A stretch of 43,668 bases of DNA, filler included, from Jimgerdemannia flammicorona (lineage: Eukaryota), in NCBI GenBank assembly GCA_003990765.1. It is 2 parts of 2 records of this genome, joined end to end, with 100 filler letters (N's around TTAATTAATTAA, not from the genome) between each part and the next. Parts side by side here need not be neighbours in the genome. Positions count along the whole stretch, not along the records: positions 21,889 to 43,668 come from RBNJ01001395.1; 1 more part is not named here. One strand, given 5' to 3'. Below are positions 11,864-43,641 of this stretch, piece by piece. The translations under genes and the position numbers were made by a program. Every line of letters begins with the position of its first letter. Position 1 is the first letter of the stretch. Below the pieces are notes generated by a model. The model ran no database searches and was not told the origin of the DNA. It saw only the letters and a program-made list of their open reading frames with translations.

Positions 11864-11884
11864 AAGAAATAATGTTGATTATCA

Positions 11885-17300: not shown

Positions 17301-17329
17301 TAGTTTATTGGGGCTGGCAGGAAAGTATA

Positions 17330-19127: not shown

Positions 19128-19537
19128 GTCTGAACTTCCAAATCCCTTAGCTTGTCTTGTTCCTTTAGTTAGTTCGGAGACTTCCTGTAACTGTGGGGTC
19201 TTGGCCTTCATGAAGACTGCTTGGGCAATCTTCTGTCCTCTAATGATTCAGTGTCATTCTGTACTGCTGTTGTATAGGATAACCTTGATTTCGCCTGTAT
19301 ATCCAGGGTCAATGGTTCCTCCTTCTACAGTTATCTCTTGTCTGGCAAGTCTGGACCTTGAGGTCAGTTGAATAAAAGCTCCTTGGGGTGGCTGCATGGC
19401 TAATCCAGTTCTGATCATGAAGGTTTTTCCAGGCTTGATAGATTCATCCTCCAGGCTGTGAAGATCATATCCTACATCCTCTGGGTGGGCTTTAGTCAGG
19501 GGTTTGGCCTTGGAGTGCAGCAGGATATACTGGGCAA
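19128..19537 (-). pseudogene. dut: dUTPase domain of gypsy 1 (between PR and RT)
   Basis: All five trimeric dUTPase motifs: VGYDL, SRSRL, GTIDPGYTGEI, KIAQAV, RQAKGFGSS. Confidence 0.93.
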
Positions 19538-21888: not shown

Positions 21889-24800
21889 CCCCCTACTCCT
21901 ACTCGATGAAAGGCCACTTTGTCTAATACTATCTCTACCCTCCCACCACTCTGTTCACAGATCCTTGCCACCAAACTGTGATATTGCCCCCCCTGAGGAC
22001 CCCAACCCACCCACCATCCAGTTAGCAGATCCCCCAACAACTCCTCCCACCTTAATATCTTCTCCTATAGCCCCATCTACCACTCCTCCTCAAATACAAA
22101 AAGCCAATATCCAGCCAGTCTCACCCACACTGCTAACACCCACCCTACAGTGAGCCAACTATCACCTATACCACTCACTAGCCAAGATCTCAAGTCCTCC
22201 CAGTGGCCTCCCTCACCTGCCAGCCTTCACTCCACACTCAGTCTATTCCCTATTTCTACCCAAAAGTCCCCCAAAATCTCACACTCTCTCAGCCAATGTT
22301 CTGGTGTCTACACAAGTCCACTAGCTTGCCCTATATTGTAACACTCCTCACAATCAAAATAGCCACCATCTACCAAATGCTCAGTGTGGAAATTCAACAT
22401 GGCATTTCTCTACAGTATTTGCCACCATACTATCCAGAACTTGGGAGGGAGCCACCTCTGCACCTCAGCACTCCAAGACCAGATACCCATCCAGTCCCAC
22501 TTCTTGCTGATCCCTGCCACCTGCCAGCCCCTTGGCCAAAGATCCTGGCTGAGACCTTGTTGACACTCCACACCATTTCCAATATCAAACTCAGCAAGTG
22601 AAGTACCCCCCAGGAGCAGTCTATCCCACTGCCATATATCTGAACCCCACATCACCTCCCCCTCATTGCCTTTCCAGCACAGGCCAATTCAGTGTACTCC
22701 ATCTACCACTCTCCACCAAAAGCCCTTAAACTGCAGCTGCCTATTTCTATTCAGTCTCACCAAAGAGAGCAGATCTCCTGAGGACCCTCAAGGGGAGGTT
22801 CTCATCTCCCACACCTTCTGCAGCAGTGGCACCCAACCCCCTCCCTGCAGTTCAGCAGCTCTCTTCAACCACCAGACTCTCAAGTAGTACAACCTCTTAG
22901 GGAAATCCATAAGGCCAAGACCTCCCCTGACCACTGGTATTGCAAGAGTATCCCAACTGATCTGGGATCTCCTCCCTGCCCAAATCCAATCTCTAGCCAC
23001 CTTCATCAGCCTCTTCACCACCCAAGCTGGGAAGTCTAGGTGATAGGCCACATACCATAACTTGGGGAACCAGTAGTGATACCCACCCTACCAGAGAGAT
23101 ATGGCAGCCTCCCCAACCTTGAAGGGCCTCCATCCAAATGATCACCCTGCTCTCCCACCACACTTATAGCAAGACAGAACCATATACAGAAAGGAAGATG
23201 CCCAGATACCACACCACCTCACCAGTAGGGACAATTGTTCCAATGATGTCTCCACTCACTAGCCCATTCCCTAGCACCATTGTCTCACACTTATGCCAGT
23301 TGAGCTTTACCCCAGAGTGAGCCTCATACTATTCCACTATCCCCTTAAGTATCTCAACATCTGCCACAGACCCAAGTCCAACCACTATGTCATCAGCAAA
23401 GGCCCCCACCTTCTACACTATACCATATATAGATAGCCCTGCCACTCTCTGGCAAATTCTATCCATCAAAGGCTCCAATGAAAGAGCATAGAGAATAGGA
23501 GACAGAGGGTCCCCCTGAGGAACTTCTCTTCCCAAAGAGAAAGCCAGATCTTGGTGATCATTACACATCAGTGCCACCTGACTGCTCTCCAGCAGATTCA
23601 ACATAGAAGTCTGAAATCTTGGAGGAATACTAATTCGATCCAATACCTTACCCAGTCATACCCACTGTACATAGTCATAGGCCTTCTCTTGGTCCAAAAA
23701 GACCAACCTTCCATCCAGTCCACAAGCCCGAGCCCCTTCAATAACACCATGCACCCATGTAGTCTCATCCCTAATAAGTCTGCCCCCAACAAAGCTCCAC
23801 TGCTCCTCCCCCAGCACCTGTTGGGCAACTTTCTGCAGCCTTGCAATAATCACCTTAGTCACTATCTTCCTGTCCATATCCAGAAGTATGATTAGTCTCC
23901 AATTCTTCTAGTCTTCCCTCCTCCCCTTGTCTTTGTACAATAAGGCCACCAGCCCAAGGTTCTGCTCTCCAACCCACTCACCACTCTGAAGAACATGGTC
24001 ACAGAGAGCAGCCATCTCACCTAAAACTTCAGGGACCTTTACCATCTTCTTCCAGAAGTCCCACAGTAACCCATCCTCCCCTGGCACTATTCTAAGCTTA
24101 GTTGCTGCAAAGACACTCTGGATCTCCTCTCCTTGCACCAGTAAGATCAAGTCACCCAGTCCAGCTACTTATAGCAGCCCCCACTCCTCTAGTGTATCTT
24201 CAATCACCTTCTCATCAGTACTCTCTTCCCCCTCACTCTACAAACCCTGTCATCTCTCCTTCAAAACCCCTAAGATTTGTTATATGCCATGCACCATATC
24301 CCCCTTAGTATCTAAGACCCCATCCCACCAATATCACACCCACCTAGCTTTGAGGAGTCTTGACAAGTACCTAGTAGGCCACTCACCCTCCTCAAGCCTC
24401 TGTCACCATAGTCTGGCAGCCATTCCTCACATATGAGTCTCCTTCTCCTCTCTCAACACCTATTGCAGTTTTACTATCTCCAATTTCACCTGCTCTATCC
24501 TCCAATCCTCCACCCCAACTGCAGTAAGCAGATCTGCCCAATCCATTTGCAGTTTCCTTAGTCTGCTGGAAGCATACCTCATGCACTTCCTCCTCTGTCT
24601 CCCAGCTGCTCTACTAGCTCCTCTCCAATAGACCCTCACAGCCTCTTTCAATCTCATCCAATGGACACCCATAGACAAACCCTCATGCCTCCAGATAAAA
24701 ACCTTCACCTGAATGTCCTCCACCCAAGAGTCCCACAACCCCTTCTCAGCCAGCAGGGAGGAGTTAAGGTGCTAATATCTGGATCCATCTCCACTCCCCC

Positions 24801-25939
24801 CAAACTGCCCCTGCTCTAACAGTCCCCAGTGATCAGACCATAGGCACTACTCCACCTCCAATATCTTTCAAACATCTGAACCCCAACACTCGACTATCAG
24901 AATCCAGTCAATCCTTGTACCCAAACCATTCATCCAATGTGTGTAGACCCTGGTGTTGCCCCACTGAGTTCTGCCCATATCCCCTAAGGAGCTCAAATTC
25001 TCCACCTCCTCCCATATATCCAGACCTCCACTTCTCCCCCCTGTATTCCTCTCTCCATCAGTTCTGTCTAGACTCTGATCCCAAACCATATTAAAGTCTC
25101 CACTGAGAACATCAACCCCTTCCTCCAAGAGAATACTCTCCTCCAGTAGCTCCTTAATCTATACAATTCTCTCACCCCTAACTGCTGGGTAGTAGCAAGA
25201 GCCAACCCTCACCAACTCCCATCCTGGCCAATGCCAATCTCCCCAGACCAAGTGATTACCCCAGCTCCTGATTCCCCCTAAGTCTCCTCTACCCTTCCTT
25301 ACCAGAATTGCCACTTTTCCAAACCAAGCAGTAGCCCCACCCCATTCTCTAGTCTACTCTACCCGATCATCCTTATCCTCACACTGTACATCCTGTAGTA
25401 AAAAGAGATCAGCCTCCAATCCCTTGAGCCAAGTAAAAATGTTCTTATACTGCCCAGATCTTCTTAACCCATTTACATTCAAAGAGAAAATATTGGTTGT
25501 ACTGTTCATAAAAAAATAATGTTATATACTGATCTCATCCTCTACAAGTCCACATTCGGCTCCTTCTACATCAAGTCCAAGTCATGTTCAGCAGCTAGTT
25601 CCCTTTCCCCAGCTTCCTATACTTCCAATCCTCTCAGAAGTTCCACTATCATACCATCTTCTCTCTCCTCAAAGTCCTCATGATACTCCAGACAGGCCTT
25701 CTGCTAGAGCTGCAAATCATGATGCTCTGCCCAACAGTAGACAGCCCACTCACCAGCAACAACCACTAGCTCTGCCTTCCTCACCTCATCAACCTCATAT
25801 CTCTCCTCCTCCAGGAAGATCACAAGAATCTCTACCTTCAGCACCTCCACCACTCCATCTCCTCACAGAATCTATGCCCAATGCTTCTCAGGCATTACAT
25901 GGAGATCCACTTCTCCCAATGCCTCAGCTGTGAGGTTAT
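21889..25939 (-). mobile_element. LINE copy 5: ORF2 (ATG 25509) and end of ORF1, interrupted by gypsy 2
   Basis: Same APE/RT motifs (QGDPLSP, AFADD). ORF1 breaks at NLTAEALGE exactly where the LTR begins. Confidence 0.93.
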
Positions 25940-26734
25940 TGTAAGAGGGTTGCTTTTTTGGGTAACCATTATATAGTTCTGGAAGGGTTTTCTGGAAGTT
26001 CTGGATATTCTGGAAGACTGTTTTCTTATGGTCAAGATCAATTTCATATAGAGTATATCCTCTATGCTTATTAATTTCAAGATTGGATTGACATCTCAAC
26101 CAAAGTCCTTTTTCGGACTAGTTCTGGATATTTAGGATTTTCCATATTTCAGGAAGTTTAAGAAACTAAGGCCAGCTTAGTTGAATTGGCATATCACTGC
26201 AGACAATACCCAATTAGGAAATTTCGTGATGGGGTTAGGAGTGGGACCTAATGGGGAGTAGATTTACTTAAGAGTGGTTTGTGGGTTATTAAATAGGTTT
26301 ATTTGCTATTTATGATATTGCTATACTAGGAATAGTTGTATGAAGGAATATTGTGGAGAAGTGCTCAAGAGTTGTGTTCAGATTGTTCAGGTCTTTTTGT
26401 CTGAGATTCTGAGGTCTGGGGGAGGGGGTATTTATACTAGTGAGGGGCTATCTGGACTATACTAGATATGGATGTAGCACTAAGTGCTTTGCTGAGTTGG
26501 AATACAGTCACATAGTATAGGTGTGATCTGATATATCAAGAGATCATCTGACTGCTGAGTCAGTTCACAGTCACGTCATACAAGGCTAATCTAACTATAC
26601 TATGACTGCTAAGCTATTTATAGGTTTAGGCACTGTCTGGTTAGTCTTTGATGATATCTTATTGATAACATCATCGCTGGCAAAGTCTGAGCAGTTTTCT
26701 GACTTCTGACATCATCAGTTTTAAGGTATCATCA
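25940..26734 (-). repeat. 3' LTR of gypsy 2 (right edge inferred)
   Basis: Starts TGTAAGAGGG and matches 37297-37844. The end is placed at TCATCA, next to the minus-strand purine tract AAGAGATAGAAG. Confidence 0.75.
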
Positions 26735-26809
26735 CTTCTATCTCTTGCAAGATTAAGGCTGTCTTTGGTGGCAGTGATTGTATAAGGATAACAGGTCTTG
26801 GTTCTCTTT

Positions 26810-27465
26810 TTTTTTAGTCTTCTGGTATATTTGCAAGGACTGGCCATTCTTGTCTAGGGCAAGGGCTCCTAATGTCACAGCTGGGGGTTCAAACCTCTCG
26901 AAAATGATATTTTCTGTAATCTGAGGCAATTTCTAGTAGTAATATCTATCACATAGATGACTTGAGATTGGTTTCAATGATGTCAGCTTTCTTGATTTCA
27001 GATGAAGTGTCCATCACTCTCTAATAGAGGTGATATAGATAGAGTGAACAGAGTTGTTCAAATGTATTTTGCTTCTGCTAAGTAATGAGGTCTTGTATAG
27101 TCACAGTGTATCTTGGTCTTGAGTTGATAAGTACAGTTCGTGAATCTTTTGGTAGATGAGATAGAGTTCTTCTTGTCTCAATTTGAGTTTGGTACTTTTG
27201 GTTTCCTTTTGTAATAGTACAGTATACCAAACTAGTTATAGCAGTTCAGAGTCAGTCTTATAGTTATAGTACTTCTTCTAGTATTCTTGTTTCTTGGCAG
27301 TGGGTTCTCATGCTTGCTGGTATATTTCATATAACCAGATGATCTCTTCAGTAACTTGTTTTGTAGTCTCGCATATGGTTTCCAAATTAGTTCTGAGGAT
27401 GCCATGCGATTTTGGTGGCTTAGAGGTTGTGCACTTACAACTCTCCCCTTCTTAGCTTTTGACAT
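26810..27465 (-). pseudogene. Putative extra ORF3 of gypsy 2 (~215 aa, probably helical)
   Basis: Protein-like frame EEIIWLYEIYQQA..KLRQEELYLIYQKIHELYLS..FEQLCSLYLYHLY, with transition stops and frameshifts. Confidence 0.5.
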
Positions 27466-27484
27466 CCTCGTTGGGGCCTTCTAA

Positions 27485-27600
27485 TTTATTCTGGTGTTGT
27501 TGTACCATTTGGATGGTTCTTGTGGCTATGTTTGTTGAGGATTTGTTCAACTTTGTATTCTTCTTGATCATTAATAATGACAGATACAGGTGATTCTGTG
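27485..27600 (-). pseudogene. Chromodomain remnant
   Basis: PVSVIINDQEEYKVEQILNKHS resembles the chromovirus EEYEVExILDxR motif; internally deleted. Confidence 0.75.
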
Positions 27601-27799
27601 GTTCGGTTCAGAAATGTATCTCAGGCTTTCTGGAGTAGTGATCTGATATGGCTGTCAACTTTGGAAAGTCTTCTTCAGAGTTCTTGGGTTCTCCTTTGGT
27701 TGGGCAGATGGAGATAGCAAAAAGAGGGCATTTCTTGGCCAATTTCTTGAGTTGTAGCTTATTGATGTAGGTGATCTTTGGTCCAGGGTCACTAGAATT

Positions 27800-28200
27800 G
27801 AGTGGGTTCTTTTTACCTTGTAGTTTGAAGTTATGGCATCCTTTCTTGATGGTCAGAGAATGGTTTACCCAATCAATCATGGGGTTCTCTTATTTCAATC
27901 ATGGGGTTCTAAGAATGATTTCATTGTCAGGGAGTGGTATGATCTGGAGAGTAACATATACTTGATAGTCACCAATTCAGAAGGGTAGATTGCAAACTTC
28001 TTTGCTAATAACATGTGAGGTTCTATCGGCTGTAACAACTGCTTGAGTTTGTTGTACTAGAGAGGTGAAGATCTTAAGTCTGTTAGCTGTTTCTTCATTA
28101 ATGAAGTTGCCTGAGGCACCACTGTCTATCATAATCTTGACAGGTGCTTGGTTGACAAAAGCTTTAAGTGTAAGCAGTTTGTCTGATCCAATGGTGGTGA
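27800..28200 (-). pseudogene. Aspartic protease of gypsy 2
   Basis: VKIMIDSGASGNFI, IILRTP*L..NPMIDW. Confidence 0.9.
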
Positions 28201-28395
28201 TTTCAGTTGTAGGAGCTTTCCTTCTGTTGGTTCTTCTTTGAGCCAGTTCATTGACACAAGAGAAGCAATCATCAATCATTCAGGAAGAGTACATTCCAAT
28301 GCTATGGGGGTATTGGCCACTTGGTATATATCCATCTTCAATTTTCTTATAAAATTGTTCTTCTTTGTTTTAGTAGGTTGGGCTGGGGCCTTGTT

Positions 28396-28803
28396 TGATG
28401 AGCCAAATCCTTTAGATCCTCAGATGGTGGGCAGTAGTTCAGAGACTTCTTTGACTGTCAGAGTTGACTTGATTTTTTTGAATAGGATCTGAGCAATGCA
28501 GAAACCTATGAGAATCTTGAAGGGTGTCCAACTATGGTTTCAGATGAGGACAATAATTTCGTCTATGTAATCTTCATCAATGACTCCTCCTTCTACTGAG
28601 AGTCCTTTTAATGCTAGGCTGCTGTGATAGCATATTCTTCCAAAATGTCCTTCAGGGATTTGGATACTGATTCCTGTGTAGACTTGTTTGACTTCTCGGT
28701 TGGAAACTGTAGCTTCTTTGGCTGCATACAGATCATATCCAGCTGTCTTTTGACTTCCTTTGGTCGGGGTCTTGGCAGTTTGTCTTAACTTGATGAAGTC
28801 CAG
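28396..28803 (-). pseudogene. dut: dUTPase domain of gypsy 2 (between gag and PR)
   Basis: TAGYDL, HSSLA, GVIDEDYIDEI, CIAQIL, GSKGFGSS. Confidence 0.92.
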
Positions 28804-28849
28804 TATTCTAGTGGTCAGGTTATTGAGGTGATGCAGAGTAGTAACAGTT

Positions 28850-30540
28850 GCTCATATTGCTGTTTGGGGTTTTTGGTTGGAGCAGGCACTGGCTATATGT
28901 CTTGTCTTTCGGCAATAGAAGTATGCTTCACTTCTTCGAAGTTTATTTCTTTTACCTTTGGTGAGTTTCTTGAAGATACTTGGCTGGGTGGGTTCATGAT
29001 TTCTGGGTGTCTATGAGGTGGATGTGGAGGGAGCTCGGGATGCTTCATGCTTGGGTTCTTCTTTCTTGGTCCAAGTCTTTTCCTTGTTGTTGAATTGTCT
29101 CCAGGTAGAATTGGTCCAGTTGTTAGGATTCGCTTGACCATAGTCTTAATTCTTGCTAGGAACCATTGTTGGTGATTGCAACCAACTAGGCAGTCTTGTT
29201 CTCAGATTTTTCTAGTAAGCCATTCAGGCAGTACATTGAATAAATAGTCTACTCTTGTACCATTTCATACTTCATCATTAGCAATATATCCTAGGCCAAC
29301 AGTATTCAGGAGTGACTCAAGTTTTGTACAGAAGGTTTCAAATTCTTCTTTGCCATGTACATCAAATTTGAGGTTGCAGAGTTTTACTCGAGATTCAGCA
29401 ATCATGGTTTCACTATAGTATTGAGCAATCATAAGTTGTTTGAGTCCAGGGGCTGCAGGATGGGCTCCATACCCTGGGGCATTATTTGCTGCATTCTGAG
29501 CAACTACTGCAGGTTGGGTATCCCATGTGAGGGGTTTTTCAGGAAGGGTTCACCACTATTCTTCAGCAGGTCCTTGAAAGAATATAACAACTTGGTAAAC
29601 ATAGGCTGTAGTGGTAGCAAAGAGTTGTTCCAGAGTGTGGTCTTGATTGTTTGTCAGAACGCAATCAGTAACTTGCTCATTGGTCCATTGATTGGCTTCG
29701 AAGTTGGTAGCAACTACACTAATGAAGCTTTGGACTTCTTGTGCAGTACCATTGAAGGTAGGTAGGCTCAGATTTTTGGTAGGTCAGGTCTATTTGGCTA
29801 AGGTAGTAATGGTTGCTGCCATTATTGCTACCTGGGCTGTGAGGTCTAGAATCTGTTGGTTTGCCATATTGTTTACTAGAGGCAGTTGGACTGCTGGTAG
29901 TGGTGTTACTGGTACTACTTGAGGTACTGGTGCAGAGTGTGATGGAGTTCTTTGGGTCTGTATAAGTTGCTGGAGTAGTAGTTGTGGGTCTGGAGTGAGG
30001 GCTTGATAGATAACTGTTTGTTATGTAGGTATATTCTGTCCTAATGGAGGTACTTCTCCTTCAGTGGTATATCTGGGATCAAATTCACTAAGATACTCCT
30101 CCTCCTCTTTGGTTTGGTCCCTGTGTAATTGGGTTTGCTTGGTGTTGAAGTAGATGGAATTAGTTATATACCTGATTTCAGATGGACTTAATTCAAAGTC
30201 AAGTTCAGGTTCAGTATTGATTTCAGATTCAGGTAGGGCTATAGCAGGGCCTGCTTCAGGTTTGGGGTCAGGTAGTTGATGAAGGGTTTCTCTTGCTTCT
30301 TCTTTAAGAATATGGCAGGCCTTGCTGTTCTGGAATTGGTAGTATAGTGCAGTCTTGGTCCTGGTATGGTGAAAGTCGATAGAGTTGAGCCACTTGGCTA
30401 TAGAGGCCTGGGCTTCATGAGGAACTAAGGCTAGAAAGAGTACTGTGTTGTCCTAGGTCACTCAGATTTGTAGAGCTGACAAAACTCTTATTGAGAAGAG
30501 TAAAGGCTTCAATAAGACCTTCTTCATCTTGACTTGTTGG
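28850..30540 (-). pseudogene. gag: Gag of gypsy 2 with long N-terminal extension
   Basis: LPTFNGTAQEVQSFI and VETFCTKLESLLNTVG are capsid-like. The frame continues across the hAT insertion site (ELLALH|PTSQDEE). Confidence 0.75.
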
Positions 30541-30569
30541 GTGTAGTGTAGTGTTCCGAACGAGTCAAT

Positions 30570-30890
30570 TCGAATCAAATCTGGATTTGATTCGTCACAT
30601 AATGGTTCGATCTGAATCTCAAATCTGAAGCCACCCAAATCAACTTGGATTAATCCAAATTACCCCATCTGAATCGCCCCATCTGAATCACCCATCCGAA
30701 CCACTCCAATCTGAATCACTCAATCTGAATCACTCAATCTGAATCACTCAATCTGAATCACTCAATCTGAATCACTCAATCCGAATCCTCCAATTCAAAT
30801 CCTCCAATTCAAATCCTCTAATTCAAATCCTCCAATCTGAATCCTCATCTGAATCCTTCAACTGAATCCTCCAATCCAAATCCTCCACAT
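30570..30890. repeat. hAT left subterminal repeats
   Basis: Tandem 14-mers TCTGAATCACTCAA and AATCCTCCAATTCA. Confidence 0.88.
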
Positions 30891-30987
30891 GACTCATATG
30901 CTAGATATATCCACAACATATTACACATATACACATATACAATACACACACACACACATACATGCACATGCAAACATGCAAACACAC

Positions 30988-32455
30988 ATGTCAACAGATC
31001 AGTCTTCAACAGTTCACAGTACCGATGATGCTTCAAGTCAAACATCCCTGATAGTTCCATACCTTCCATGCAATCCTTGCTCTGAAATCTGGCAACATTG
31101 TGCTAAGATAGGAGATGATGTTGTTTGTAATTATTGCAGATAAAAAATTAAGATGCACCTATTGACTTGTTTGACACATATATGATATTGTTTCATCCAC
31201 CCCCAATAAACTGCACCAGCCAGAAGTTCAAAATGCTTGGTGGTATGATCTCAAACATAAATCGATACATAAAAGACAAGTACTCTGACAAAATCAAAAA
31301 GAACACAGAGATAAATAAAATTGACATCCAAGCTGTGGTGAGTACATTTATCCAATTGCCCAACTATTTCTGTACCAACAATGCTGTTTAATCAAAAATA
31401 TTTAGCCATACTCTTCGGCAGAATTTTGAAATCGGCTCATTTGCTGGATTGTGTACACAGATCAGCCATTTACAACCATTGAGAGTGATTAATTACATAG
31501 CATCTTTGGCCTCCTCAAGCATTATTTATATTTGCCAAGTGCCGATACTATTTATAAAGATGTCCTGGAGGCCTATAGGAAGGAGCACAATAATCTCCAT
31601 CAGACACTTCAGGTAAAATAAGGGCAGCACCATAACCTTTGCAAGCTGAATTATATAAAAGAGTTCACCAATTTAACCTTATATTCAATAAGCAGAATTT
31701 GGCAGGCAAAATTTTATTTATAATTAACACATAGATATCCCCCAATGCAATTTCATTTCTGGGCATTACCGGTCATTGGATTGACCTCAATTGGCAGCTT
31801 AAATCTCTCACCCTTGACTTCATCAAACTTGCTGGCCCTCATTCTGGAGACAACATTGCAGATGCTTTTATTAGTTGTATCCAGGAGCTTGGGATCACAA
31901 TCAAGGTAAAAAAAGGGGGGCTTGCCATCAGGTCAGCATTTTGAGGGAGGTCCTTAAATAGAACAGATTTTGTTGGTTATTTATTTTCACATAATTCACC
32001 AACCAAATATTTCAAGTACAGATTTTGGCCATTATGATGGACAATGCCACAAACAACTCAACATTTTTCCAAGTTTTAGTAGCTAGCCTCAAACAGGAAA
32101 ACATGGCCTTTGGTACAGAAAGCTATCATGTGTAATGCCAGGTCCATATACTGAACCTCGCTATTCAGGACTATCTTATGTATGTAGACAAAACATCTGA
32201 GAGAGGAGGGGCCCTGAGTATAATTTCCAAGCTGCACAAACTGGTTGTGTCAGTCCGATTGTCCCCACAATGACGAGACAAATTCGCTGCACAGTGTAGG
32301 GCAATTAGTTTAGCTCTGAAAGAGTTTATATTAGACATCTGTATACATTAGAACTCAACATTTGTAATGATCCAGTATATGCTGGAGTTTGCTGTGGTAT
32401 GCATTCTTTTTTTCTTCAGTCAGCTGAAGCAACTGTTTCAGATGATGGAAGATTT

Positions 32456-32498
<43 letters not shown>

Positions 32499-33578
32499 CC
32501 AATAGATTCAACGATGGCTGCTGATAAGAAAATATGGGCCGAGGTTCTAGGTGAAAGTGAGTGGGTTATACTTAGGAATGTTGTCAGAGTTTTGGAAGTA
32601 AGTAGTGGTTACTCTGGCTCTATACTCATTTTGTCTGCCTCCACACAATGCAATATCTCACCACATATAACTGCCAGTGTTTTGACGATTGTATGAAGGA
32701 TATAGTCAAACAAACAACCCCAACAATAAGCTCTGCAATACCAGTATACAACCTTCTGATTAACTGGCTAGAGGACAAGCTCAAGGACAGGCTGGAGGAT
32801 TGTGGTGATTTACAGTTAAGCCTAGATCAGAGAGATGCCATGGAGGTTACTCTAAGCAAGCTCAGGAAATACTACTCCCAAACAGATACCACTGTATACT
32901 AAATCAGTACAGGTATGTCAATATCAGCATGTAGCTGTTGCCCCTTCTAAAACAGAGGAAACCCCACAAAAACTCACTCTCCTTTTTTTCAAACAGTGCT
33001 AGACCCATGCTTAAAACTACAATACCATAAAGATCAGGGCTGGGAGCAGTACTTCATTGAGAGAACCAAGCAGGCTGTAATCGAAGTGTACCAGAAAAAC
33101 TACACACTACCGCAAGGTTCTGGCTGAAGTCTAGACAAATATGCTGAGGGTTTCCTTCTGTCCCACATTTACTTCAGCAGAAAGAGGAAGAGGGAGCCAT
33201 TAGTGGAAGAGCTGCCATCAATAGATGAACTTACCATTTACCTCACCAGTGACCATGTGGTCCTGCTGGAGGGTGCGGAGGTGCTCAGCTGGTGGAAGGT
33301 GAGTTGTCAGGTGGGTATTGTCAGGTGGGTGTTGGGCCAATTTAACCCACCAATCTAACCACTGCTCTATCCACTGGGGCATGCAGCTGTATCAAATGGA
33401 CTTCTCTAGCCTATATAGTATGGCTCGGGACTACCTGGTGATTCCTGCCTCCAGCACTCCTATTGAGTGGGTGTTCTCAGGTAGGGTGGACCTTGTTGCC
33501 CCAAAGAGGTGTGCACTGAATACTGAGACAATCTGGGCATGTATGTATCTGAAGTCTTGGTGGGGCTCAGACTACTAA
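30988..33578 (+). pseudogene. hAT (Ac-like) transposase, ~8 introns
   Basis: BED finger SEIWQH..VCNYC; FLGITGHWID..HSGDNIA; MDNATNN; CQVHILNLAIQ; decayed TRWNST; MARDYLVIPASSTPIEWVFS dimerisation domain. GT-AG introns, e.g. 32912-32996 and 33299-33386. Confidence 0.95.
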
Positions 33579-33714
33579 AATTTGGTAGGTTTGCAGATAA
33601 GTTGGTTGGCCTTGTGGAATATTTAATACCTTTCAAATTAATATCTTTCAAAATAATAAAAAAGGAAAAAAAAAACCTGAGGACTTGGCCTAGAGTCTGT
33701 GGCCCAAGTGGGGC

Positions 33715-34185
33715 AGGGTTGGCAGCAGCAGTGGAGGGAGCATGCAATATTTGCAGCCCTCAGCCAGCAGCAAGGGGCAGTCCCAAGCTGCCAGTATCTG
33801 GGTCAGTGGGCAGATCGGTGGGCGGGTTGGTGGGTTGGCAGAGAGAGTGTGCAAAATTTGTGGCCCTCTGCCAGCAGCAAGGGGCAGCCCCAAGCCGCAA
33901 GTGTCTAGGTCAAGGGGGTAGGTGGAGGGAGCATGCAAAATTTGCGACCCTCCACCAGCAGTGAGGGGCAGCCCCAAGCTGTCAGCACCCAGGTCAGTGG
34001 GTGGGGTCAGTTGGTGGATTGGCAGGCACAGAGTCGGCGGAGGGAGCATGCAAAATTTGTGGCCCTCTGCTGGCAGCAAGGGGCAGCCCCAAGCTGCAAG
34101 TGTCCAGGATGGGTAGGGCAGGCAGAGGGAGCATGCAAAATTTGCAGCCCTCTGCCAGCAGCATAGGGGCAGCCCCAAGCCACAA
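33715..34185. repeat. Five ~85-110-bp tandem units
   Basis: Recurrent core GAGGGAGCATGCAAAATTTG-GGCCCTCTGCCAGCAGCAAGGGGCAGCCCCAAGCTGC. Confidence 0.9.
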
Positions 34186-34481
34186 AGAAGTCCAGGGCAG
34201 AGAGTGCTTCTAGTAGTCAGAGGGTGCTTCTGGCAGTCAGAGGGTGTTTTCAGTAGTCGAAGTCACCAGTTCAGGTCCCATGGGCACCCCAGCCCTGTGC
34301 CATAGTGCTGCACCAGCAGCACTACAGAGCAGGGCCAAGGGGCCAGTAGGGCCCTGCATAATAGCTAAGCTAGTGCTACATAAGAGGCACCCAGCCCACA
34401 TAAGACTACCCAACCTGCACAAAATGGCTGTCTAACCCACACAAAATGGCTGCCTAACCCTTATAAAAGATTGTCTAACCC

Positions 34482-36563
34482 TTACAAAAACTGCTCCACC
34501 CACTGGTCTCAGACCTTGATGAGCCTATCATCTGTTGTGAGTACAACGACTGTTGTGTCTGAGCTCTCCTCAAAGGCAATAGTACTATGGTGGTCATGTG
34601 GTTGGAATAGGATGGCCATGTTGGCCACAAACGAGACCCTGAAACTATAGGTGAGATTGTACCAGACTCTGCTGCTATTCTCTCAGTTTGGGCCCTTCCT
34701 TTCTGGGATGTAAAACATTACCAGGGTGACATTGTTGTCTGTGTATATGGGTAGAGATAGGTTGTACCTGATATATTCTGATATAATGCGAGCATATAGT
34801 TGGTGAACCCTTGGCCCAGGACCTCATACTGCCAGGCTGTACTGGTGGATGTCTGTTCTTGGTCTAGCCCTGAGAGCCCTGGCTTAGAAATCTGCCAAAA
34901 CAGATGGTAAATGGTCAGTCTTTTTTGTGTACGGGGGGGCAGAAACCCCCCAGGCTACAGCATCCTGAAAAAGCAGAGCTCCTCACCTCATATGGCACAC
35001 TAAATTGCACTAAGAATGTATGTACAGCTGCATCGAGATCACCACCAAGCTGGCCTACCATATGCTCTACCAATCTGCTCAAAGAACTCCAGATCATAGC
35101 TGCCATCACCACACAGGCCGTGTCATACTTACATGCAGTTTGCTCTTTAATAGTACTTCTAAAGTTCTGGTAGAGGTACAGAATCTTGTGCATCCCTAGA
35201 ATTGTATCAAAAAGAGTATATTGGTGAAGAGTGTGATTTATCTGGAGAGGGGTTAAAAAAAAAGGGAGATGAGTGCAGGAAATTTTGAAACTCCAGAACC
35301 CACCCTTTGCCAGTATTGCAGTATACCCAATTCCCATCCAAACCCCCCCTCCTTACTTTTTTCACCCCCTCTTTCCTGCCATCCAGTATTTGACACAATC
35401 CTTGCAAATCTCATTGATGTGGTAGTGAAGCTCATCGCCATAGAGGTTCCTTACCACCATCGCAACCACCTCTCCATGTTCATTAATAAAGATACATATG
35501 ATTCTCTTCATCGTTGATTACTCCTGCTGACCAATAGACCCCTTGGTCGAGTATGATTGGCTCTGATTCGAATGTAGACCCCCAAGCCTTGATGATGATG
35601 CTGGTACTGCTCATGCTGAATATCTTGCCCTTAAATTTCTCTATTTGATCAGACACCAGACATGGTTGAACTTGGGTAACTTTGAACTCTCCTTTTCAAT
35701 GAAACTGAGCCCTGATCTGAGGGACCAAGATAAGTATGTAGATGGGTTGTGTGCAGATGGGTTGCATGCAGGTGGGTTGTGTGTGGGTGGGTTGTGTGCG
35801 GGCAGGTTGCAGGTAGGTTGCATGCAGGTGGATTGCATGTGGGCAGGTTGCATGCAGGCAGGTTGCATGCAGGTGGATTGCATGTGGGTATAGGTGTTTT
35901 TTAGGGGGAGACCACATAAAAATGAAATTAAATAAAACACAGAGATGGGTATTTCAGAAAAAGAGTATGAGTGAGTGAGTGAGTGAGCTACATGCCAACA
36001 AGTTGCACACTGATAAGTTGCATGCCAATAAGTTGCACAAGTTGCACAAGATTGCTCATGAAGGCTTGCTTCTGTTTCTTTTGAGACCTCTGCCATGTGA
36101 TGTATTGACTCAATAGCTCAGCCACCAAAGGCATGCCTCACAACATCTGCCAGCCTTTCTTCATCTTGACCAGATGTTGCAAATAAAGTTGGCAGATCTC
36201 GCCATAGAGCTGTGGACCCTAAGAAAAGCACAAGATGAATTGGATTGTGCTGGGGAAGTTTAAATAAATACAAGTAAACAAGTGGTAATCAAGTGAGCAA
36301 CCTACATCTACTATCGGCTGCTCCAAAAAGGCTGCCATATACATAGCTGTGAGGTCTGTGAATTCTGAGGTCCAAAGGGCCATCGTGAGTTGTTGCCAGA
36401 ATTCTCCCTCATCCCCGCCATCACTATCACCATCACCACCACCACCACCATTATCTCTTTGGCTCTCAATGAGCAGCTTATATGCTGTCTATATGAGAAA
36501 GAATCTAACAATGTCAGCAGAGAGTGCATTTCCATCTCAAATACTCCCTCTTTTGATGATCAT
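34482..36563 (-). pseudogene. Spliced cargo gene, putative TET/JBP-like 2OG-Fe(II) dioxygenase with an unknown N-terminal region
   Basis: Exons ~36563-36306, 36249-~36048, 35716-35357, 35241-34987, 34891-34482. Motifs ILGM(H/R)K, VLGQGFTN, PI(Y/H)TD, YSFRVSFVANMAILF..HSTIA. Confidence 0.62.
35740..36050. repeat. GGTTGCATGCA / AGTTGCA short repeats in cargo intron 2
   Basis: Degenerate ~15-bp units seen directly. Confidence 0.8.
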
Positions 36564-36789
36564 TGCAGGGTAAAAAATGAGTAGACTGGACCAACATATG
36601 AATTAAGGACTGCTGTTTTGTTTGTTCATGATGCAGCAGGAAAGAACAAAGAAAAAGAACAAAGAAAAAGAACAAAGAAAAGAACAAAAGAAGAGAGGGA
36701 GTAAAAAGAAAGGGTGGTGTCACCAAAGTACGATAGGAAAAAAAAAACAAGAGCAAAATGAACAAAAGAAAGGGTGATGTTACCAAAGA

Positions 36790-37000
36790 TTTCAATCAGG
36801 ATGAATCAATCTGGATGGACCAATCCAGATGGACCAATCCAGATAGACCAATCCAGAACAATCCAAATGGATCAATCCAGATAGATCAATCTGGATTAAT
36901 CTGGATCAATCCAGATCAGATCATGAGACCAATCCAAGTTGATTCGAATCCATTATATGTATGACAAATCTGAATCAAATCTCATCTGGATCAACTCCAT
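36790..37000. repeat. hAT right subterminal repeats
   Basis: Repeated CAATCCAGAT / ATCTGGAT. Confidence 0.85.
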
Positions 37001-37280
37001 CCATTCAGAGCACTAGTGTAGTGCAAGGAGTTCGGTGAATAGAATTTCACTTATTTGCTGATTTAACTAGAGTATTTCTTTCTTTGAATGAAGTTTGTCC
37101 CACTTATTGCAGGGGTGGAGGTCAAATTGTCCTTGTATGTCAGGTTCAATTCTCTCCAGATTGTCAGATTATTCAGGCTAAATTCCAGTTCAGAGGTTGG
37201 GCTCTATACCAACTTGTAGGAATTTGCAGAGGGGTTTATAGTAGAGTGAGGAAGCATCTTGAAGCAGAATTGGATTGTAA

Positions 37281-37293
37281 ACTGCTACTACCA
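37281..37293 (-). promoter_or_regulatory. Primer-binding site of gypsy 2
   Basis: TGGTAGTAGCAGT lies 3 nt inside the 5' LTR; the TGG start is complementary to tRNA CCA. Confidence 0.7.
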
Positions 37294-37296
37294 AGT

Positions 37297-37844
37297 TGTA
37301 AGAGGGTTGCTTTTTTAAGTAACCATTACATAGTTCTGGAAGGGTTTTTTGAAAGTTTTGGATATTCTGGAAGACTGTTTTCTTATGGTCAAGATCAATT
37401 TTATATGGAGTATATCCTCTATGCTTATTGATTTCAAGATTGGGTTGACGTCTCAACCAAAGTCCTTTTTTGGACTAGTTCTGGATGTTCAGGATTTTCC
37501 ATATTTTAGGAAGTTTAAGAAACTAAGGCCAGCTTAGTTAAATTGGCATATCACTGCAGACAATACCCAATTAGGAAATTTTGTGATGGGGGTTAGGAGT
37601 GGGACCTAATAGGGAGTGGATTTACTTGAGAGTGATTTGTGGCTTATTAAATAGGTTTATTTGCTATTCATGATATTACTATACTAGGGGTAGTTGTGTG
37701 AAGGGATATTATTGGGAAGTACTCAGGAGTTGTGTTCAGATTGTTCAGATCTGAGATTCTGAGGTCTGGGGAAGGGGGTATTTATACTAGTAAGGGGCTA
37801 TCTGGACTATGCTAGATATGGATGTAGCACTAAGTGCTTTGCTG
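37297..37844 (-). repeat. 5' LTR of gypsy 2 (partial, cut by LINE copy 6)
   Basis: Colinear with 25940-26494 up to TAAGTGCTTTGCTG. Confidence 0.93.
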
Positions 37845-37919: not shown

Positions 37920-39968
37920 ATGTCAACCAGCAAGCAAGCCGATGTACATTCGAGGTCAGGTGGACCTGGGGCCTTCAACTGGCAGCATGTAGAGAGAGGG
38001 TATGGACTGGGAATGGGGTCTTTCGGTGGATCAAGTGGACTGAGCAGCTCAGGTGGTAGAGGCAGCACTGGTGGGGGGGCTGGAGAGCAGCAGGGAGGGA
38101 GCTTTACAGATGCACTTAAGGCTGGAGGTTGGCCAAGGGGTGCCGCAGTGGACAGGCAGGAGGAAAGGGGAAGCAGAAGGTTGGAGATGCTGGGGGAGCT
38201 GGGTCTTTGCTGGTGGGAGGTGGAGGGAGTAGAGTAGTGGCTGGGGGTAGTGGCAGGACTGCTGATGGTAGTGTGACAGTGGATCAGGAAAAAAAAAGAG
38301 ATGTGATGGCTGATGGCCAGGGGGGACAGGGGTTCCCAATACGGAAGAGGGACCTGGCTGATGGTGTAATGGGACTGATGGTGGCCCTGTTACTCAAGAA
38401 GTCAATCTCGGAGTTCGCGGCTACCTTGTGCTTCAGGGGCTTGGCAGTGACAGCGAGGATGGTCCTGGGGCTTATTTCGAGGCAGATGACTGGTGCAGCC
38501 TTAGTGAAGTTCTTGAAGGGCCTAGAGGGGGTTGAGGTGGGCTTTGAGGAGGCAGACCTACTGGACGAGGCTATGAAGTCAGGAGTGGTGATTGGGGAGA
38601 TAGTGGTCCCCATGATGAGGTGCTTAAGGTGGGACCCCAGAGTGGTGCAGCTTCTAGTGAGGGGGGTGCCCATAGTGACTAAGGAGGAGACTAGGAGGAG
38701 GGTGGAGGAGGTGATGGTAGAGTATGGTGATGTGGTGGACATTGGCTTTCAGCTGTGGGAGGGGACAACTTTCAGGATGGGTGACATCAATGTCAGGATT
38801 CGGTTGGCGGGGAAGGAGGCCACAGGGAAGACAAGTGACTGGCCCTCGGTACTGATGTAGGGGGCCATCATCTGTAGGGTATCAAGGGTAAAAGGGAGTG
38901 AAGAGGAGGAGGAGGACTTGTTGGAAGCACTGGAGGAGTTAGGTGGTGCTGTGGGGAGGAGGGCAAAGGCTTGGAAACTGTATGAGGAGTTGACACATCT
39001 GAAGGTTGTGGGCAGGAAGCATATCTGTATGGATAGGAAGCAGTGGGAGTAGGCCCAGGGACGTAAGAGGCAGAGGGAGCTGTTGGCAAGTATGATAGGT
39101 GGGGTGAAGAAGAAGTTGGGTGAAGCTGAGGAGTCTGGAGGCATTAAGGCTAGTGTCTGGACTGGCAAAGGAGGAGAGGAGGTGGAGGTGGAGGAGGCAG
39201 GGGCTGGGAAGGGGCTGGACAGGGACCCATTTGCTGATGGTACCTTCGAAGTATGGGAGCCAGTATTGGATGCCACCCCCCCCCCCACTTATCAGGAGGG
39301 GCCCACTTGGGAAGAGAGGGATGATGGAGGATACATAGATGCAGGGGGCCCAGCAGGTGTGCTTTGGAGTCCCTGATGCGACACAAGGGGGTCTGGTGGT
39401 GGCAGCTGATGAGGATGAGCTGGTGGATGTCCCTGAGAAGGAGTGGGATAAGGCTGCTAGTGTAGGAGCTGACACCATAATGTTGGATGCAGGACGACCG
39501 GGGACTCTGGGAGGGAAGGAGGTGGAGAACTTGTTGTGGATACACAAGGTGATGGATAATCTCATGGCAGAGGCTTTGGGGGAGGTGGACCTGCAGGCAA
39601 TGCCTGAGGAGCATTGAGCAAGGATTCTGCATGGTGATGGAATGGTGGAGGCACTGAAGGTGGAGATTCTGGCGATTTTGCTGGAAGAGGAGGGATATGA
39701 GGTTGACGAGGTGAGGAAGGCAGAGCTGGGGGTGGTCACTGGTGAGCAGGCGGACTACTGTTGGGCAGAGCATCATGGTCTGTAGCTCTGGCAGGAGGCC
39801 TGTCTGGAGTATCACAAGGACTTTGAGGAGCATGAAGATGGGGCAATAGTAGAACTTCTGGGTGAGTTGGAGGCACAGGAAGCTTGGGAGAGGGAACTAG
39901 CTGCTGAACATGACCTGGACTTGGTGCAGGAGGAGCAGGTTGCTGACTTATAGAGGATGGGACTCTGA
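37920..39968 (+). pseudogene. LINE ORF1 (~680 codons, RRM-like)
   Basis: VKFLKGLEGVEVGF, VQLLVRGVP, YGDVVDI, GDINVRIRL..WPSVL; several TAG/TGA stops. Confidence 0.87.
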
Positions 39969-39984
39969 TATATCATTATTCTTT

Positions 39985-42900
39985 ATGAACAGTACAACCA
40001 ACATTTTCTCCTTGAATGTGAATGGGCTAAGGGGCTCTGGGTGGCATAGGAACATTTTTACTTGGCTCAGGAATTGGAGGCTGATCTCTTTTTATTACAG
40101 GATGTTTGGTGTGAAGATGAGAATGATCAGATTGAGTGGACTAGGGAATGGGGAGGGGCTACTGCTTGGTTTGGAAAGGTAGCGATTCTGGTGAGGAAGG
40201 GCAGAGGAGACTTGGGGGGAATCAGGAGCTGGGGCGATCACTTAGTCTGGGGAGATTGGCATCAGCTAGGGTGGGAATTGGTGAAGGTGGGCTCTTGCTA
40301 CTGCCCTATAGCTAGGGGTGAGAGAACTACATGGATTAGGGGGCTGCTGGAGGAGGGTATTCTCTTGGAGGAAGGAGTCGATGTTCTTGGGGGGGACTTT
40401 AATATGGTTCAGGATCAGTGTCTGGACAGAACTGATGGAGGGAGGAGTGCTGGGGGTAGAAGTGGAGGTCTGAATATATGGGAAGAGGTGGAGATGTTGA
40501 GCTCCTTGGGGAATATGGGCCAAACAAGGTGGGGTGACACCAGGGTCTATACGCATTGGATGAATGGCTTAGGCACAAGGATTGACTGGATTCTGACAGT
40601 TGAGTGCTGGGGTTCAGATGTTTGGAAGGCATTGGAAGTGGAGTAGTGCCTATGGTCTGATTACTGGAGACTGTTGGGGCAGGGGCAGTTTGGGGGAAGT
40701 GGAGATGGACCTGGACATTGGCACCTTAACTCCTCCCTGCTGGCTGAGAAGGGGTTGTGGGAATTGTGGGTGGAGGACATTCAGGCAAAAGTTTATATCT
40801 GAAAGCATGAGGGGTTGCCTGTAGCTGTCTGCTGAATGAGGTTGAAAGAGGCTGCGAGGGTTTATTGGGGAGGGGTTGGTAGAGAGGCTGGGAGGCAGTG
40901 GAGGAGGTACACGAGGTGTACTTCCAGCAGGCTGAGGAGACTACAAATAGATTGGGCAGATTTGCTCACTATTGTAGGGGTGGAGGATTGGCGGATAGAA
41001 AGGGCGAAATTGGAGATAGTGGAACTATAACAGGTGTTGAGGGAAGAGGAGGAGACTCATATGCAGGGCATGACTGCTAGGCTACGGTGGCAGGGACTTG
41101 AGGAGGGTGAGCAGTCTACTAGGTACTTATCGAGACTTCTCAAAGCTAGGAGAGTGCATCATCAGTGGGATGGGGTCCTGGATGCTGATGGGGACATAGT
41201 ACATGGTACACAACAAATCTTGGGGGTCTTGAAGGAGAGATGGCAGGGCTTGTGGAGTGAGGGAGAAGGGGGTGTGGATGAGGCAGAGATTGCAAATATG
41301 TTAGATAAGTGGGGGCCATCACCGGTAGCTGGCCTGGGTGACTTGATCTTACTGGTGTAGAGAGAGGAGATCCAGAGAGTCCTGGCAGCAACTAAACTTG
41401 GGATGGCACCCAGGGAGGATGGATTGCCATGGGACTTCTGGAAAAAGATGGTAAATGTCCCCAGAGTTCTGGGTGAGATGGCTGCTCTCTGTGACCATGT
41501 CCTTCAGAGCAGTGAGTGGGTTGGAGAGTAGGATCTGGGGCTGGTGGCCTTATTGTACAAAGACTAGGGAAGGAGGGAAGACTGGAAGAACTAGAGGCTG
41601 ATCATACTTCTGGATATGGACAGGAAGATGGTGACTAAGGTGATTGTCGCTAGGCTGCAGAAAGTTGCCCAACAGGTGCTGGGGAAGGAGCAACAGGGCT
41701 TTGTTGGGGGCAGGCTAATAAGAGATGGGACTGTATGGGTTCATGGTGTCATTGAAGGGGCCTGGGCCTGTGGACTAGATGGAAGGTTGGTCTTTTTGGA
41801 CCAGGAGAAGGCCTACGACCATGTATGGTGGGTGTGACTGGGCAAGGTATTGGACTGAATTGGTGTTCCCCCAAGATTTAGGGCATCTATGTTGAGTCTG
41901 CTGGAAAGTAGTCAGGTAGCTCTAATGTGTAATGGTCACTGTGAGAGGGCATTTCCCTTGGGAAGAGGAGTTCCTCAGGGGGACACTCTGTCCCCTATTC
42001 TCTATGCCCTTTCACTGGAGCCATTGATGGATAGGATTCGCCAGAAGGTAGCAGGGCTCTTTATATATGGTATAGTGTGGAGGGTGGGGGCCTTTGCTAA
42101 TGATATAGTGGTTGGACTTGGGTCTGTAGTGGATGTAGAGGCACTTCAGGAGACTGTGGAATGGTATGAGGCTCACTTGGGGGTAAAGCTCAACTGGCAT
42201 AAGTGTGAGATGATGGTGCTAGGGAATGAGCTAGTGGGTGGGGATGTCATTGGAACAATTATCCCTACTGGTGAGGTGGTGCAGTATCTGGGCATCTTCC
42301 TCTCTATATATGGTTCTGTCTTGCCACAAGTGTGGTGGGAGAGCAGGGTGAATAGTTGGGGAGAGGCCCTTCAAGGTTGGGGAGGCCGCCATATCTCTCT
42401 AGCAGGGTGGGTGTCAATCCTGAATGTATATTGGTTCCCAAAGCTGTGGTATGTAGCATATCACCTCAACTTTCCAGTGTGGGTGGTGAAGAAGCTGATG
42501 AAGGTGGCTAGGAATTGGATTTGGGTGGGGAGGAGGTCCCAGGTCAGTTGGAATACTCTTGTGAGACCAGTAGTCAGGGGAGGTCTTGGCCTGGTAGATT
42601 TCTCTAAGAGGCTGCACTGCTTGTGAGCCTGGTGGTTGAAGAGAGCTGTGGAATTGCAGGGTGGAGGTTGGGTGCCTCTGCTGCAGAAGGTATGGGAGAT
42701 GTGAACATCCCCTTGAGGGTCCTCAGGAGATCTGCTCTCTTTGGTTGGGCTGAATGGAATTCAGAGGCTGTGGTTCAAGGGCTTTTGGTGGGGAGTGGCT
42801 GATGGAGCACACCGAATTGGCCTGCGCTGGCAAGGTAATGAGGGGGAGGTGGTGGGGGGGCCTAATATGTGGCATTGGGATAAACTGCTCCTGGAGGGTA

Positions 42901-43641
42901 CTCCATTGGCTGCATTCGATATTGGGGAGGGAGTAGAGTGTCAGCAGGGGCTTGGCCAGGATCTTTGGCCAGGTGGCTGGCAGGCAGTAGGAATCGGTGA
43001 GGAGTGGGACTGGGTGGGTATCTGGTCTTGGAGTGCAGAGGTACAGAGGTGGCTTCCTCCCAAGTTCTGGATGGTATGGTGGAGAATGTTGCGGAGAAAT
43101 ATCATGCTGAATTTCTACACCGGGCATTTGGTAGATGGTGGACAATTTGACTGTGAGGAGTGTTATGATGTTGGGTGAGCTGGGGGGCATGTACAGATGC
43201 CAGGACATTGGCTGGGAGAGTGTGAGGTTTTGGGGGAATTTTGGGCTGAAATAGAGGATAGACTGGGTATAGGGTGTCAGCTAGTGGGGGTGGGGGGTTG
43301 CTGGGAGGACTTAAGATCTAGGCTTGTGGGTGGGGTGGGTGATAGTTGGCTCACTGTAGGGTAGGTGTTAGCAGTATGGGTGGGACTAGCAGGACATTGG
43401 CTTTTTGTATTTGAGGAGGGGCAGCGGTTGGGGCTGCGAGAGAAGGTATTAAGGTGGGAGGAGCTGATGGGGGATCTGCTGACTGGATGGTGGGTGGGTT
43501 GGGGTCCTCAGGGGGGAAGACATTGCAGTTTGGTGGTAAGAATCTGTGGGCAGAGTGGTGGGAGAGTGGAGATAGTGTCCGACAGAGTGGTCTTTCATTG
43601 GTGATGAGGTGGGGTGGGGCCACCCAATGGGGATTGGATAG
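39985..43641 (+). pseudogene. LINE ORF2 (APE - RT - CCHC)
   Basis: MNSTTNIFSLNVNGLRG, LLQD, GGDFN, RIDWIL; LDQEKAYD, QGDTLSP, AFAND, YLG; CEEC..PGHWLGEC. Confidence 0.94.

Follow-up and report, generated by a model that had tools for sequence, protein, structure and literature searches.

Transposon-borne TET-like enzymes are thought to remove the methylation marks that hosts use for silencing, and a stretch of the Jimgerdemannia flammicorona genome (assembly GCA_003990765.1) raises the question of whether a hAT DNA transposon carries such an enzyme as cargo. The stretch, hereafter the window, is 43,668 nucleotides long and joins parts of two records (positions 21,889 to 43,668 come from RBNJ01001395.1); all coordinates below count along it. 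Positions 30549-37015 hold one member of a multi-copy hAT transposon family, dead and hypermutated, in which a transposase gene on the plus strand faces a second gene on the minus strand. An earlier note, made from the sequence alone, had read this second gene as a spliced TET/JBP-like dioxygenase. We put at roughly two in three the probability that this hAT family carries a three-exon dioxygenase gene of the TET/JBP kind as cargo, convergent with the transposase.

A decayed, spliced gene convergent with the transposase

Homologues and shared intron positions confirm that the minus strand carries a real gene, spliced, decayed and convergent with the transposase, as first proposed. A translation of 34509-34823 (P0001, minus strand, read through one in-frame TGA as X) served as phmmer query against 1.84 billion representative proteins and gave four matches at E<=0.001, three of them credible: the metagenome protein P0002 (136 amino acids, 68% identical, E 9.6e-39), P0003 (134 amino acids, 40% identical, E 3.4e-16) and P0005 (128 amino acids, 29% identical, E 2.1e-04), which represents a 28-member cluster. 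All three are short, fungal-looking open reading frames (ORFs) from metagenome contigs some 1 kb long and are equivalent to the last exon of the window gene. The fourth, P0004 (1364 amino acids, repetitive, E 9e-05), was judged to match by chance and was left out of the alignments, and two fragments of 63 and 67 amino acids (P0016 and P0018) were excluded from alignment A2. Placed on the window by tblastn, P0002 matches in two frames with a joint E of 5e-48, its residues 2-28 at 34882-34802 (20/27 identical) and residues 24-133 at 34817-34488 (74/110 identical); tblastn of P0002 and an internal blastn found no second gene copy within the window. Word-indexed searches for longer proteins, with a 145-amino-acid frame, P0001 and alignment A1 as queries, returned no match and no full-length annotated relative. 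With three credible matches among so many representatives, the protein family is very rare in databases.

Two metagenome contigs of the Joint Genome Institute, L001 and L002, hold a homologue of what we call cluster 3 together with its upstream exons, that of L001 being 29-33% identical to the window gene. Aligned with it, the predicted dioxygenase domain is made up of three exons (A, B and C) and two introns, in place of the five exons of the earlier note. The N-terminal portion of the domain would be encoded by exon A (35304-35695, minus strand), whose 5' limit and start codon are unsettled. A frameshift interrupts this exon near 35500, two stops follow at 35364-35362 (TGA) and 35355-35353 (TAA), and L001 exon 1 aligns to 35478-35302 in a single frame that runs through both stops, window G-I-G-Y-T-A-I-L-A-K-G being matched with S-A-G-Y-T-V-N-F-A-S-G. 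An intron had been placed at 35356-35242; this is wrong because 35352-35304 is coding by comparison with L001 (GGGVWMGIGYTAILAKG aligned with L001 ASTGTYVSAGYTVNFASG), and the actual intron 1, with GT and AG ends, lies at 35303-35196 (108 nt, GTGGGT...CTAG, phase 1). The codon that it divides, after the first base, is the Gly directly before M-H, and the L001 intron 1181-1266 divides this codon in the same way. Exon B (34987-35195, minus strand) is open and comprises 69 whole codons and the last two bases of the split Gly codon; it resembles L001 exon 2 weakly (E 0.2) but is flanked by two conserved intron positions. Intron 2 (34892-34986, minus strand, 95 nt, GTGAGG...CAG, phase 0) stands as originally drawn, L001 having an intron (1452-1533) at the same place and in the same phase, and 31 residues separate its junction from the Q of F-T-Q in both genes.

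Exon C (34482-34891, minus strand) is the last and contains the Y-T-D site (ancestral H-T-D) at 34745-34737, the distal His at 34589-34587 and the TAA stop at 34484-34482, all three correctly located in the earlier note, whose quoted peptides are also present in minus-strand frames. Its breaks are TGA stops at 34685-34683 and 34511-34509 and a one-base loss at about 34803/34804, which falls directly after GQGFT rather than after ...YQNISG, where a frameshift had been supposed. The supposed motif GMRK finds no support, L001 having G-M-H, and the DTIL of the peptide DTILGMHK is intron sequence. A reading of G-M-H-K as decayed G-W-R-K was rejected as well: the G-I-G-W-R-K of the PU-type enzymes discussed below corresponds to G-I-G-Y-T-A at about 35333-35316, inside the abandoned intron 35356-35242.

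Upstream of the domain lies a tandem repeat (35736-35888) with periods of 15, 30 and 45 bp, to which a Keratin_B2 Pfam match was traced as a low-complexity artefact. It separates the domain from open frames at 35990-36563 (minus strand) that had been proposed as exons 1 and 2 with an intron at 36305-36250; these lack support as part of the gene, with no tblastn homologue and no real Pfam match. Contigs of sequencing run X1, which like those of run X2 were aligned over 30000-37500, cover 35990-36563 as they do the rest of the element.

The contigs L001 (1-3666) and L002 (1-2870) are AT-rich. The distant homologue appears as an intact three-exon gene in L001, and that of L002 has one in-frame stop in exon 1 and another in the last exon. 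Two ORFs downstream of the gene in L001 (2320-2601 and 2661-2945) gave no Pfam match.

In the window copy the dioxygenase gene is interrupted by four premature stops and two frameshifts, and one of its metal ligands has changed from His to Tyr. Where it reads P-I-Y-T-D, S-S-R and H-S-T, P0002 reads P-T-H-T-D, G-G and H-G-T, exactly the H-x-D, GG and H-G-T that the earlier note had obtained by reversing the C>T/G>A decay. Of the 43 codons mismatched with P0002, 29 are restored when one window base is changed from T to C or from A to G, against 4 restored by the reverse changes and 7 by a transversion; within the 110-codon block, undoing 26 of 36 mismatches would raise identity to P0002 to 91%. 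The element has a CpG observed/expected ratio of 0.16 and an excess of TG and CA (about 1.4), and the ratio is 0.0-0.2 across nearly the whole window. Differences of X1 contigs from the window comprise 626 transitions and 47 transversions. All 19 X1 contigs spanning the stop at 34685-34683 read TGG there (34683 T>C), and P0002 has Trp. One X2 contig stops aligning at 34803 and goes on as homologous sequence shifted by one base, where 24 of 29 places agree after one extra base and the frame ...F-T-Q-L-Y... is kept as in P0002. The breaks at 34685-34683 and about 34803 are private to the window copy. The same C>T/G>A decay destroyed its transposase and dioxygenase genes, and this copy is dead.

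Borders and mobility of the hAT element

The element is 6467 bases long and, as the earlier note had it, is bounded by terminal inverted repeats and a target-site duplication. The 14-nt repeats, TAGTGTTCCGAACG at the left end (30549-30562, plus strand) and, as reverse complement, TAGTGCTCTGAATG at the right end (37002-37015, minus strand), agree at 11/14 positions, all three mismatches being C/T, and beyond them a likeness of the two ends with insertions and deletions extends for about 60 bases. Identical copies of the 8-bp duplication GTGTAGTG lie at 30541-30548 and 37016-37023. Empty sites were recovered from both sequencing runs: two X2 contigs connect 30540 to 37016, with 6475 bases absent (6467 + 8), and two X1 contigs pass from 30548 directly to CAAGGAGTTC, which is window 37024-37033. 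In one X2 contig the left end has a different flank and therefore marks another insertion. Repeats, duplication and contigs together fix the borders of the element and show that it moved as a unit.

The transposase (30853-33578, plus strand) is decayed into many frame fragments interrupted by stops and spread over three frames. ORF 33303-33578 (plus strand) matches Pfam Dimer_Tnp_hAT (PF05699; E 3.1e-09, 36.9 bits, cut-off 21.4) over residues 29-86, which places the hAT C-terminal dimerisation domain at 33387-33560; a Pfam scan of the other 12 of 13 transposase fragments found no hAT domain, the BED finger and the RNase-H-like DDE core included. The transposase frames also contain candidate BED-finger-like and GITGHWID/HILNL-type motifs, the latter of a kind typical of hAT cores. 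A run of 38 A lies within the decayed transposase region (32460-32497), and comparable A runs occur at about 7223-7288 and T runs at 8119-8149.

Between the convergent genes are G/C-rich tandem units of about 110-190 bp (33731-34185; 65-93% identity by internal blastn), which vary in copy number among X1 contigs, as seen from joints that go back to an earlier unit. Subterminal short repeats occupy 30652-30887 on the left (units of 14 and 42 bp, ATCTGAATC...) and 36793-36891 on the right (CAATCCAGATGGA...), the latter being roughly the inverse of the former. The hAT sits inside a Gypsy-like long terminal repeat (LTR) retroelement on the minus strand (25939-37844) and was therefore inserted later than it. 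The LTRs of that retroelement (25939-26494 and 37296-37844) are 92% identical, and it retains matches to a protease (27980-28279) and a dUTPase (28543-28851).

Metal site, predicted fold and family

The relatives share P-[TV]-H-[TV]-[DN], G-G and H-G-T. His48 occurs in 15/15 aligned relatives, His100 with the following Gly in at least 90% of them and Asp50 in most, P0005 having Asn, and the two His are about 50 residues apart. The metal-binding site thus reads H-T-D in P0002 and P0003, H-V-D or H-V-N in cluster 3 and Y-T-D in the window, where TAC (34745-34743) stands in place of the His codon and needs one T>C to become CAC; the Tyr at this place had already been pointed out in the earlier note. 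At the distal site H-G-T has become H-S-T, with AGT where relatives have Gly. Judged from this alignment, the H-x-D...H metal triad is present in the relatives, hence ancestral, and broken in the window copy.

The ESM Atlas model of P0002 (predicted template modelling score 0.59) has ten listed structural neighbours with template modelling (TM) scores of 0.54-0.63 over 89-107 residues. Seven of these ten belong to clusters with a 2-oxoglutarate (2OG)-Fe(II) or Tet_JBP Pfam family, one of them with Tet_JBP in 28% of its members, and one further neighbour is named as a prolyl 4-hydroxylase 2OG dioxygenase. In the Atlas feature search with P0002, the first named cluster (rank 3) is 'Tet-like 2OG-Fe(II) oxygenase' (PF20515; 0.91, 178 shared features); a 57-amino-acid ORF gave no usable match in the Atlas. 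On these models and the motif likeness described below, the gene product is very probably a double-stranded beta-helix dioxygenase, and its placement in the TET/JBP clade is probable. The 2OG-Fe(II) neighbours, some of them Tet-like, back the TET/JBP assignment made in the earlier note, which is supported to a moderate degree because a Pfam match to Tet_JBP or PF20515 is missing.

The closest described proteins appear to be those of the PE type, TET/JBP-like proteins found in Pezizomycetes and Agaricus and carried by Helitron1, IS3EU, Zisupton, EnSpm and Plavaka elements (PMC12730594). By eye, both families have G-E-[IV]-V-A-M-V-x-R-N near the start followed by G-Y-[ST]-A, then G-G-x-[FW]-[FY]...Y-G-[IF]-R...N-T-x-V-x-[WF]-Q...H-G-T and a C-terminal R-L-[IVL]-K, and both are without Arg at the position of the PU-type R-L-G. 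Compared by eye with Helitron-1_TuBo, one of the protein rows of Table S1 in that paper, window GEVVAMVVRNL is identical to GEIVAMVYRNF at 8/11 places, window G-Y-T-A corresponds to G-Y-S-A, and P0002 is identical at 13/31 ungapped places from G-G to H-G-T. Exact words were largely missing. HTDNN, DLHGT, YGFGV, LTTDDRL, WQYEV, PTHTD and PVHVD, as well as IGMH, LGMH, YGFR, VAMVV, HGTVA, VTSGY and the 12-base end TAGTGTTCCGAA, are absent from the portion of Table S1 of PMC12730594 used here; LHGT, VHGT and HGTT occur in it, and YGFG once, at an unrelated position within a PU row. Among the family words of 4 to 7 residues searched, only H-G-T-T and L-H-G-T were found in its PE rows. The hallmark of the PE type is H-x-E (PMC12730594), whereas the window family has H-x-D, and hAT elements are not among the PE-type carriers listed there. 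We therefore regard the gene as encoding a TET/JBP-type dioxygenase that is PE-like rather than PE-type, because H-x-D stands in place of H-x-E.

Standing cargo or accidental association

Several observations weigh against a TET/JBP cargo gene. Pfam PF12851 (Tet_JBP), PF20515 and any 2OG family remained unmatched at E up to 10 in a scan of 11 minus-strand window pieces, P0001, P0002, P0003, P0005 and five L001 ORFs, two of which are the upstream exons of the homologue gene, and the P0001 sequence and the A2 profile matched no solved structure at E up to 10. AlphaFold models of P0002 reached a predicted local distance difference test score of 36.5 with 15 sequences and 46.7 with no alignment, and fold searches from these low-scoring models gave chance-level rows only. 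The Atlas results concern predicted models of a relative, and many of the neighbours are prolyl-hydroxylase-like, not TET. In this gene family Thr, Ala or Leu takes the place of the 2OG-binding Arg of PU-type R-L-G-L-S; another Arg, in R-L-[IV]-K, is shared by the window gene, P0002 (21 residues past the distal His), P0003 and the PE type, and cluster 3 is without it. The comparison with the PE type was made by eye against Table S1 protein rows of PMC12730594 and carries no tool score. As for linkage, none of the contigs listed, which are Logan contigs of 150-360 bases, connects gene and transposase in any other copy, and contig depth is not equal to copy number. The missing Pfam match lowers the TET/JBP claim and does not exclude it, because PE-type proteins were themselves detected only through HHpred and structure comparison (PMC12730594).

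In run X1, 2942 contigs aligned to the element region and covered all 30 bins, with 336, 816, 1243 and 547 contigs in identity bands of 99% and above, 95-99%, 90-95% and below 90%, respectively. Over the transposase the distinct contigs numbered 21, 11, 7, 9 and 12 at positions 32084, 32306, 32611, 33151 and 33522, and over the gene 19, 7, 9, 8 and 4 at positions 34683, 34758, 35011, 35021 and 35517. The strongest of the competing explanations, which we nonetheless hold to be unlikely, is that the gene came from another mobile element, such as a Helitron or IS3EU-type TET carrier, or from a host locus, and was nested in or recombined into the hAT, so that its link with the transposon is accidental. 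It would fit the finding that the nearest by-eye relatives of the gene are in Helitron, IS3EU and Zisupton elements, not hAT, the repeat arrays that lie both between gene and transposase and between gene and right end, and the want of a contig tying the two genes together elsewhere. It is harder to square with the joint absence of all 6467 bases at the empty site, with the similar X1 contig numbers over the gene and transposase parts, and with the surroundings of the gene, which show no notable inverted repeat (best pair 20 nt, 75% complementarity). An old capture that then spread with the family would, moreover, still make the gene cargo.

A little less probable again is that the protein is a 2OG-Fe(II) oxygenase of some other family, prolyl-hydroxylase-like or similar, that acts on a protein or a small molecule. 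Six of the ten Atlas rows listed are clusters of PF13640/PF13759 type or named prolyl or hypoxia-inducible factor (HIF) hydroxylases and Tet_JBP appears in one only, which together with the unmatched Pfam Tet_JBP and PF20515 and the missing canonical Arg favours such a protein. The Atlas features nevertheless rank a Tet-like PF20515 cluster first among the named ones and another neighbouring cluster includes Tet_JBP, the order and spacing of the motifs fit the PE type of Kojima from the N-terminal strand to H-G-T, and DNA transposons are known carriers of TET/JBP genes. PE-type proteins are in turn tied by structure comparison to CMD1, NgTET and CcTET, with e-values below 1e-5 (PMC12730594). 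A dioxygenase of the TET/JBP kind remains the preferred identity of the product.

The last explanation is very improbable. Elements of the hAT superfamily do capture host gene fragments, and the window copy is dead and is the sole copy in the window, yet a single transduplication of a host gene fragment that never served the element is at odds with the many diverged X1 contigs that hold the gene region as they do the transposase region (19 at 34683, 14 at 36535), with a domain complete in three exons and both introns rather than a fragment, and with the open frame and metal ligands retained by P0002. The earlier note had itself set a one-off capture against its proposal; recurrence of the gene in diverged contigs speaks against such a capture, and linkage to the transposase in those copies is not proven.

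Relation to known systems and proposed role

TET/JBP genes have been reported in 11 lineages of DNA transposons, hAT included, among them 20 TET-bearing hAT families of Puccinia, which make 7-bp duplications and encode enzymes of the PU type (Kojima, 2025; PMC12730594). The statement of the earlier note that no hAT association was known is therefore out of date, and a literature search for further reports of fungal hAT-borne TET/JBP dioxygenases found only this paper. The hAT7 elements of Puccinia resemble the window element as fungal hATs with a TET/JBP-type gene beside the transposase, and in both cases the repeats of the genome have undergone heavy C-to-T decay. They differ in having 7-bp duplications and a start of CAACGGTGGGC..., whereas the 7-bp duplication that marks the hAT7 subgroup is replaced here by one of 8 bp, with symmetrical ends that start TAGTG and a 6475-base skip at the empty site. 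The hAT7 enzyme is of PU type (G-W-R-K, P-H-K-D, R-L-G-L-S), in contrast to the PE-like gene of the window, and by eye the PU type of rust hAT7 is visibly more distant from the window family than is the PE type. The enzyme gene of hAT7-1_PCor, hAT7-2_PCor and hAT7-1_PHor is located upstream of the transposase and read in the same direction; that of the window lies downstream and is convergent.

Two better-characterised enzyme groups offer a looser comparison. In 2014 Iyer and colleagues reportedly linked TET/JBP genes of the AG type, including CcTET of Coprinopsis, to Kyakuja/Zisupton elements. Like the window gene these encode a fungal, transposon-linked dioxygenase thought to oxidise 5-methylcytosine and so to act on repeat-silencing methylation; the transposon superfamily is another and the sequence much more distant, and the AG type has a solved structure and shown activity whereas the window family is known from sequence. 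CMD1 of Chlamydomonas is a TET homologue that adds a glyceryl group to 5-methylcytosine using vitamin C. HHpred ranks it first for PE-type proteins (E 1.4), and it is also one of their structural neighbours (PMC12730594); the window family compares with it in lacking the usual Arg at the PU-type position, a resemblance that is weak and second-hand through the PE type. It is conceivable, if rather doubtful, that the family is a fourth type of transposon-borne TET/JBP-like enzyme, PE-like with H-x-D and without the usual 2OG-binding Arg, captured by an 8-bp hAT, which like CMD1 might use another co-substrate and make a base other than 5-hydroxymethylcytosine.

By analogy with these systems, in active ancestors of the element the enzyme would most likely have oxidised 5-methylcytosine on the DNA of the element itself and probably on nearby DNA too. 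Such oxidation could relieve silencing by methylation and lessen deamination and with it C-to-T decay. Membership of the TET/JBP clade, on moderate evidence, this substrate and an anti-silencing role are inferred, and the function of transposon-borne TET/JBP genes is itself stated to be experimentally unvalidated (PMC12730594).

The occurrence of TET/JBP genes in hAT transposons was published in 2025 (PMC12730594). New here are a conventional 8-bp hAT as carrier, a PE-like H-x-D enzyme, the convergent orientation and a protein family nearly missing from databases. The added carrier and enzyme suggest that such captures are more widespread than the 11 reported lineages, and the locus records one outcome of an arms race, an anti-methylation gene ruined by C-to-T decay, the very process it presumably worked against. 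With this copy dead and the phenomenon already published, the finding is of use chiefly for drawing attention to an enzyme family that has been poorly sampled, and not as a new principle.

Other elements in the window

A second Gypsy-like element on the minus strand (16616-19592) retains fragments of a dUTPase (18891-19592), a reverse transcriptase (17686-18789) and an integrase (16616-17089). LTR elements that bear a dUTPase form an uncommon subgroup. On the plus strand, an element resembling long interspersed nuclear elements (40050-42623) has an endonuclease/exonuclease/phosphatase region (40050-40643) and a reverse transcriptase (41859-42623). Blocks of several kb at 8001-14000, 22001-26000 and 38001-43000 have very strong GC skews of about -0.5, -0.45 and +0.45, respectively; they contain long open frames without a Pfam match, for example one of 299 amino acids at 10097-10993, and their CpG observed/expected ratio is 0.0-0.17.

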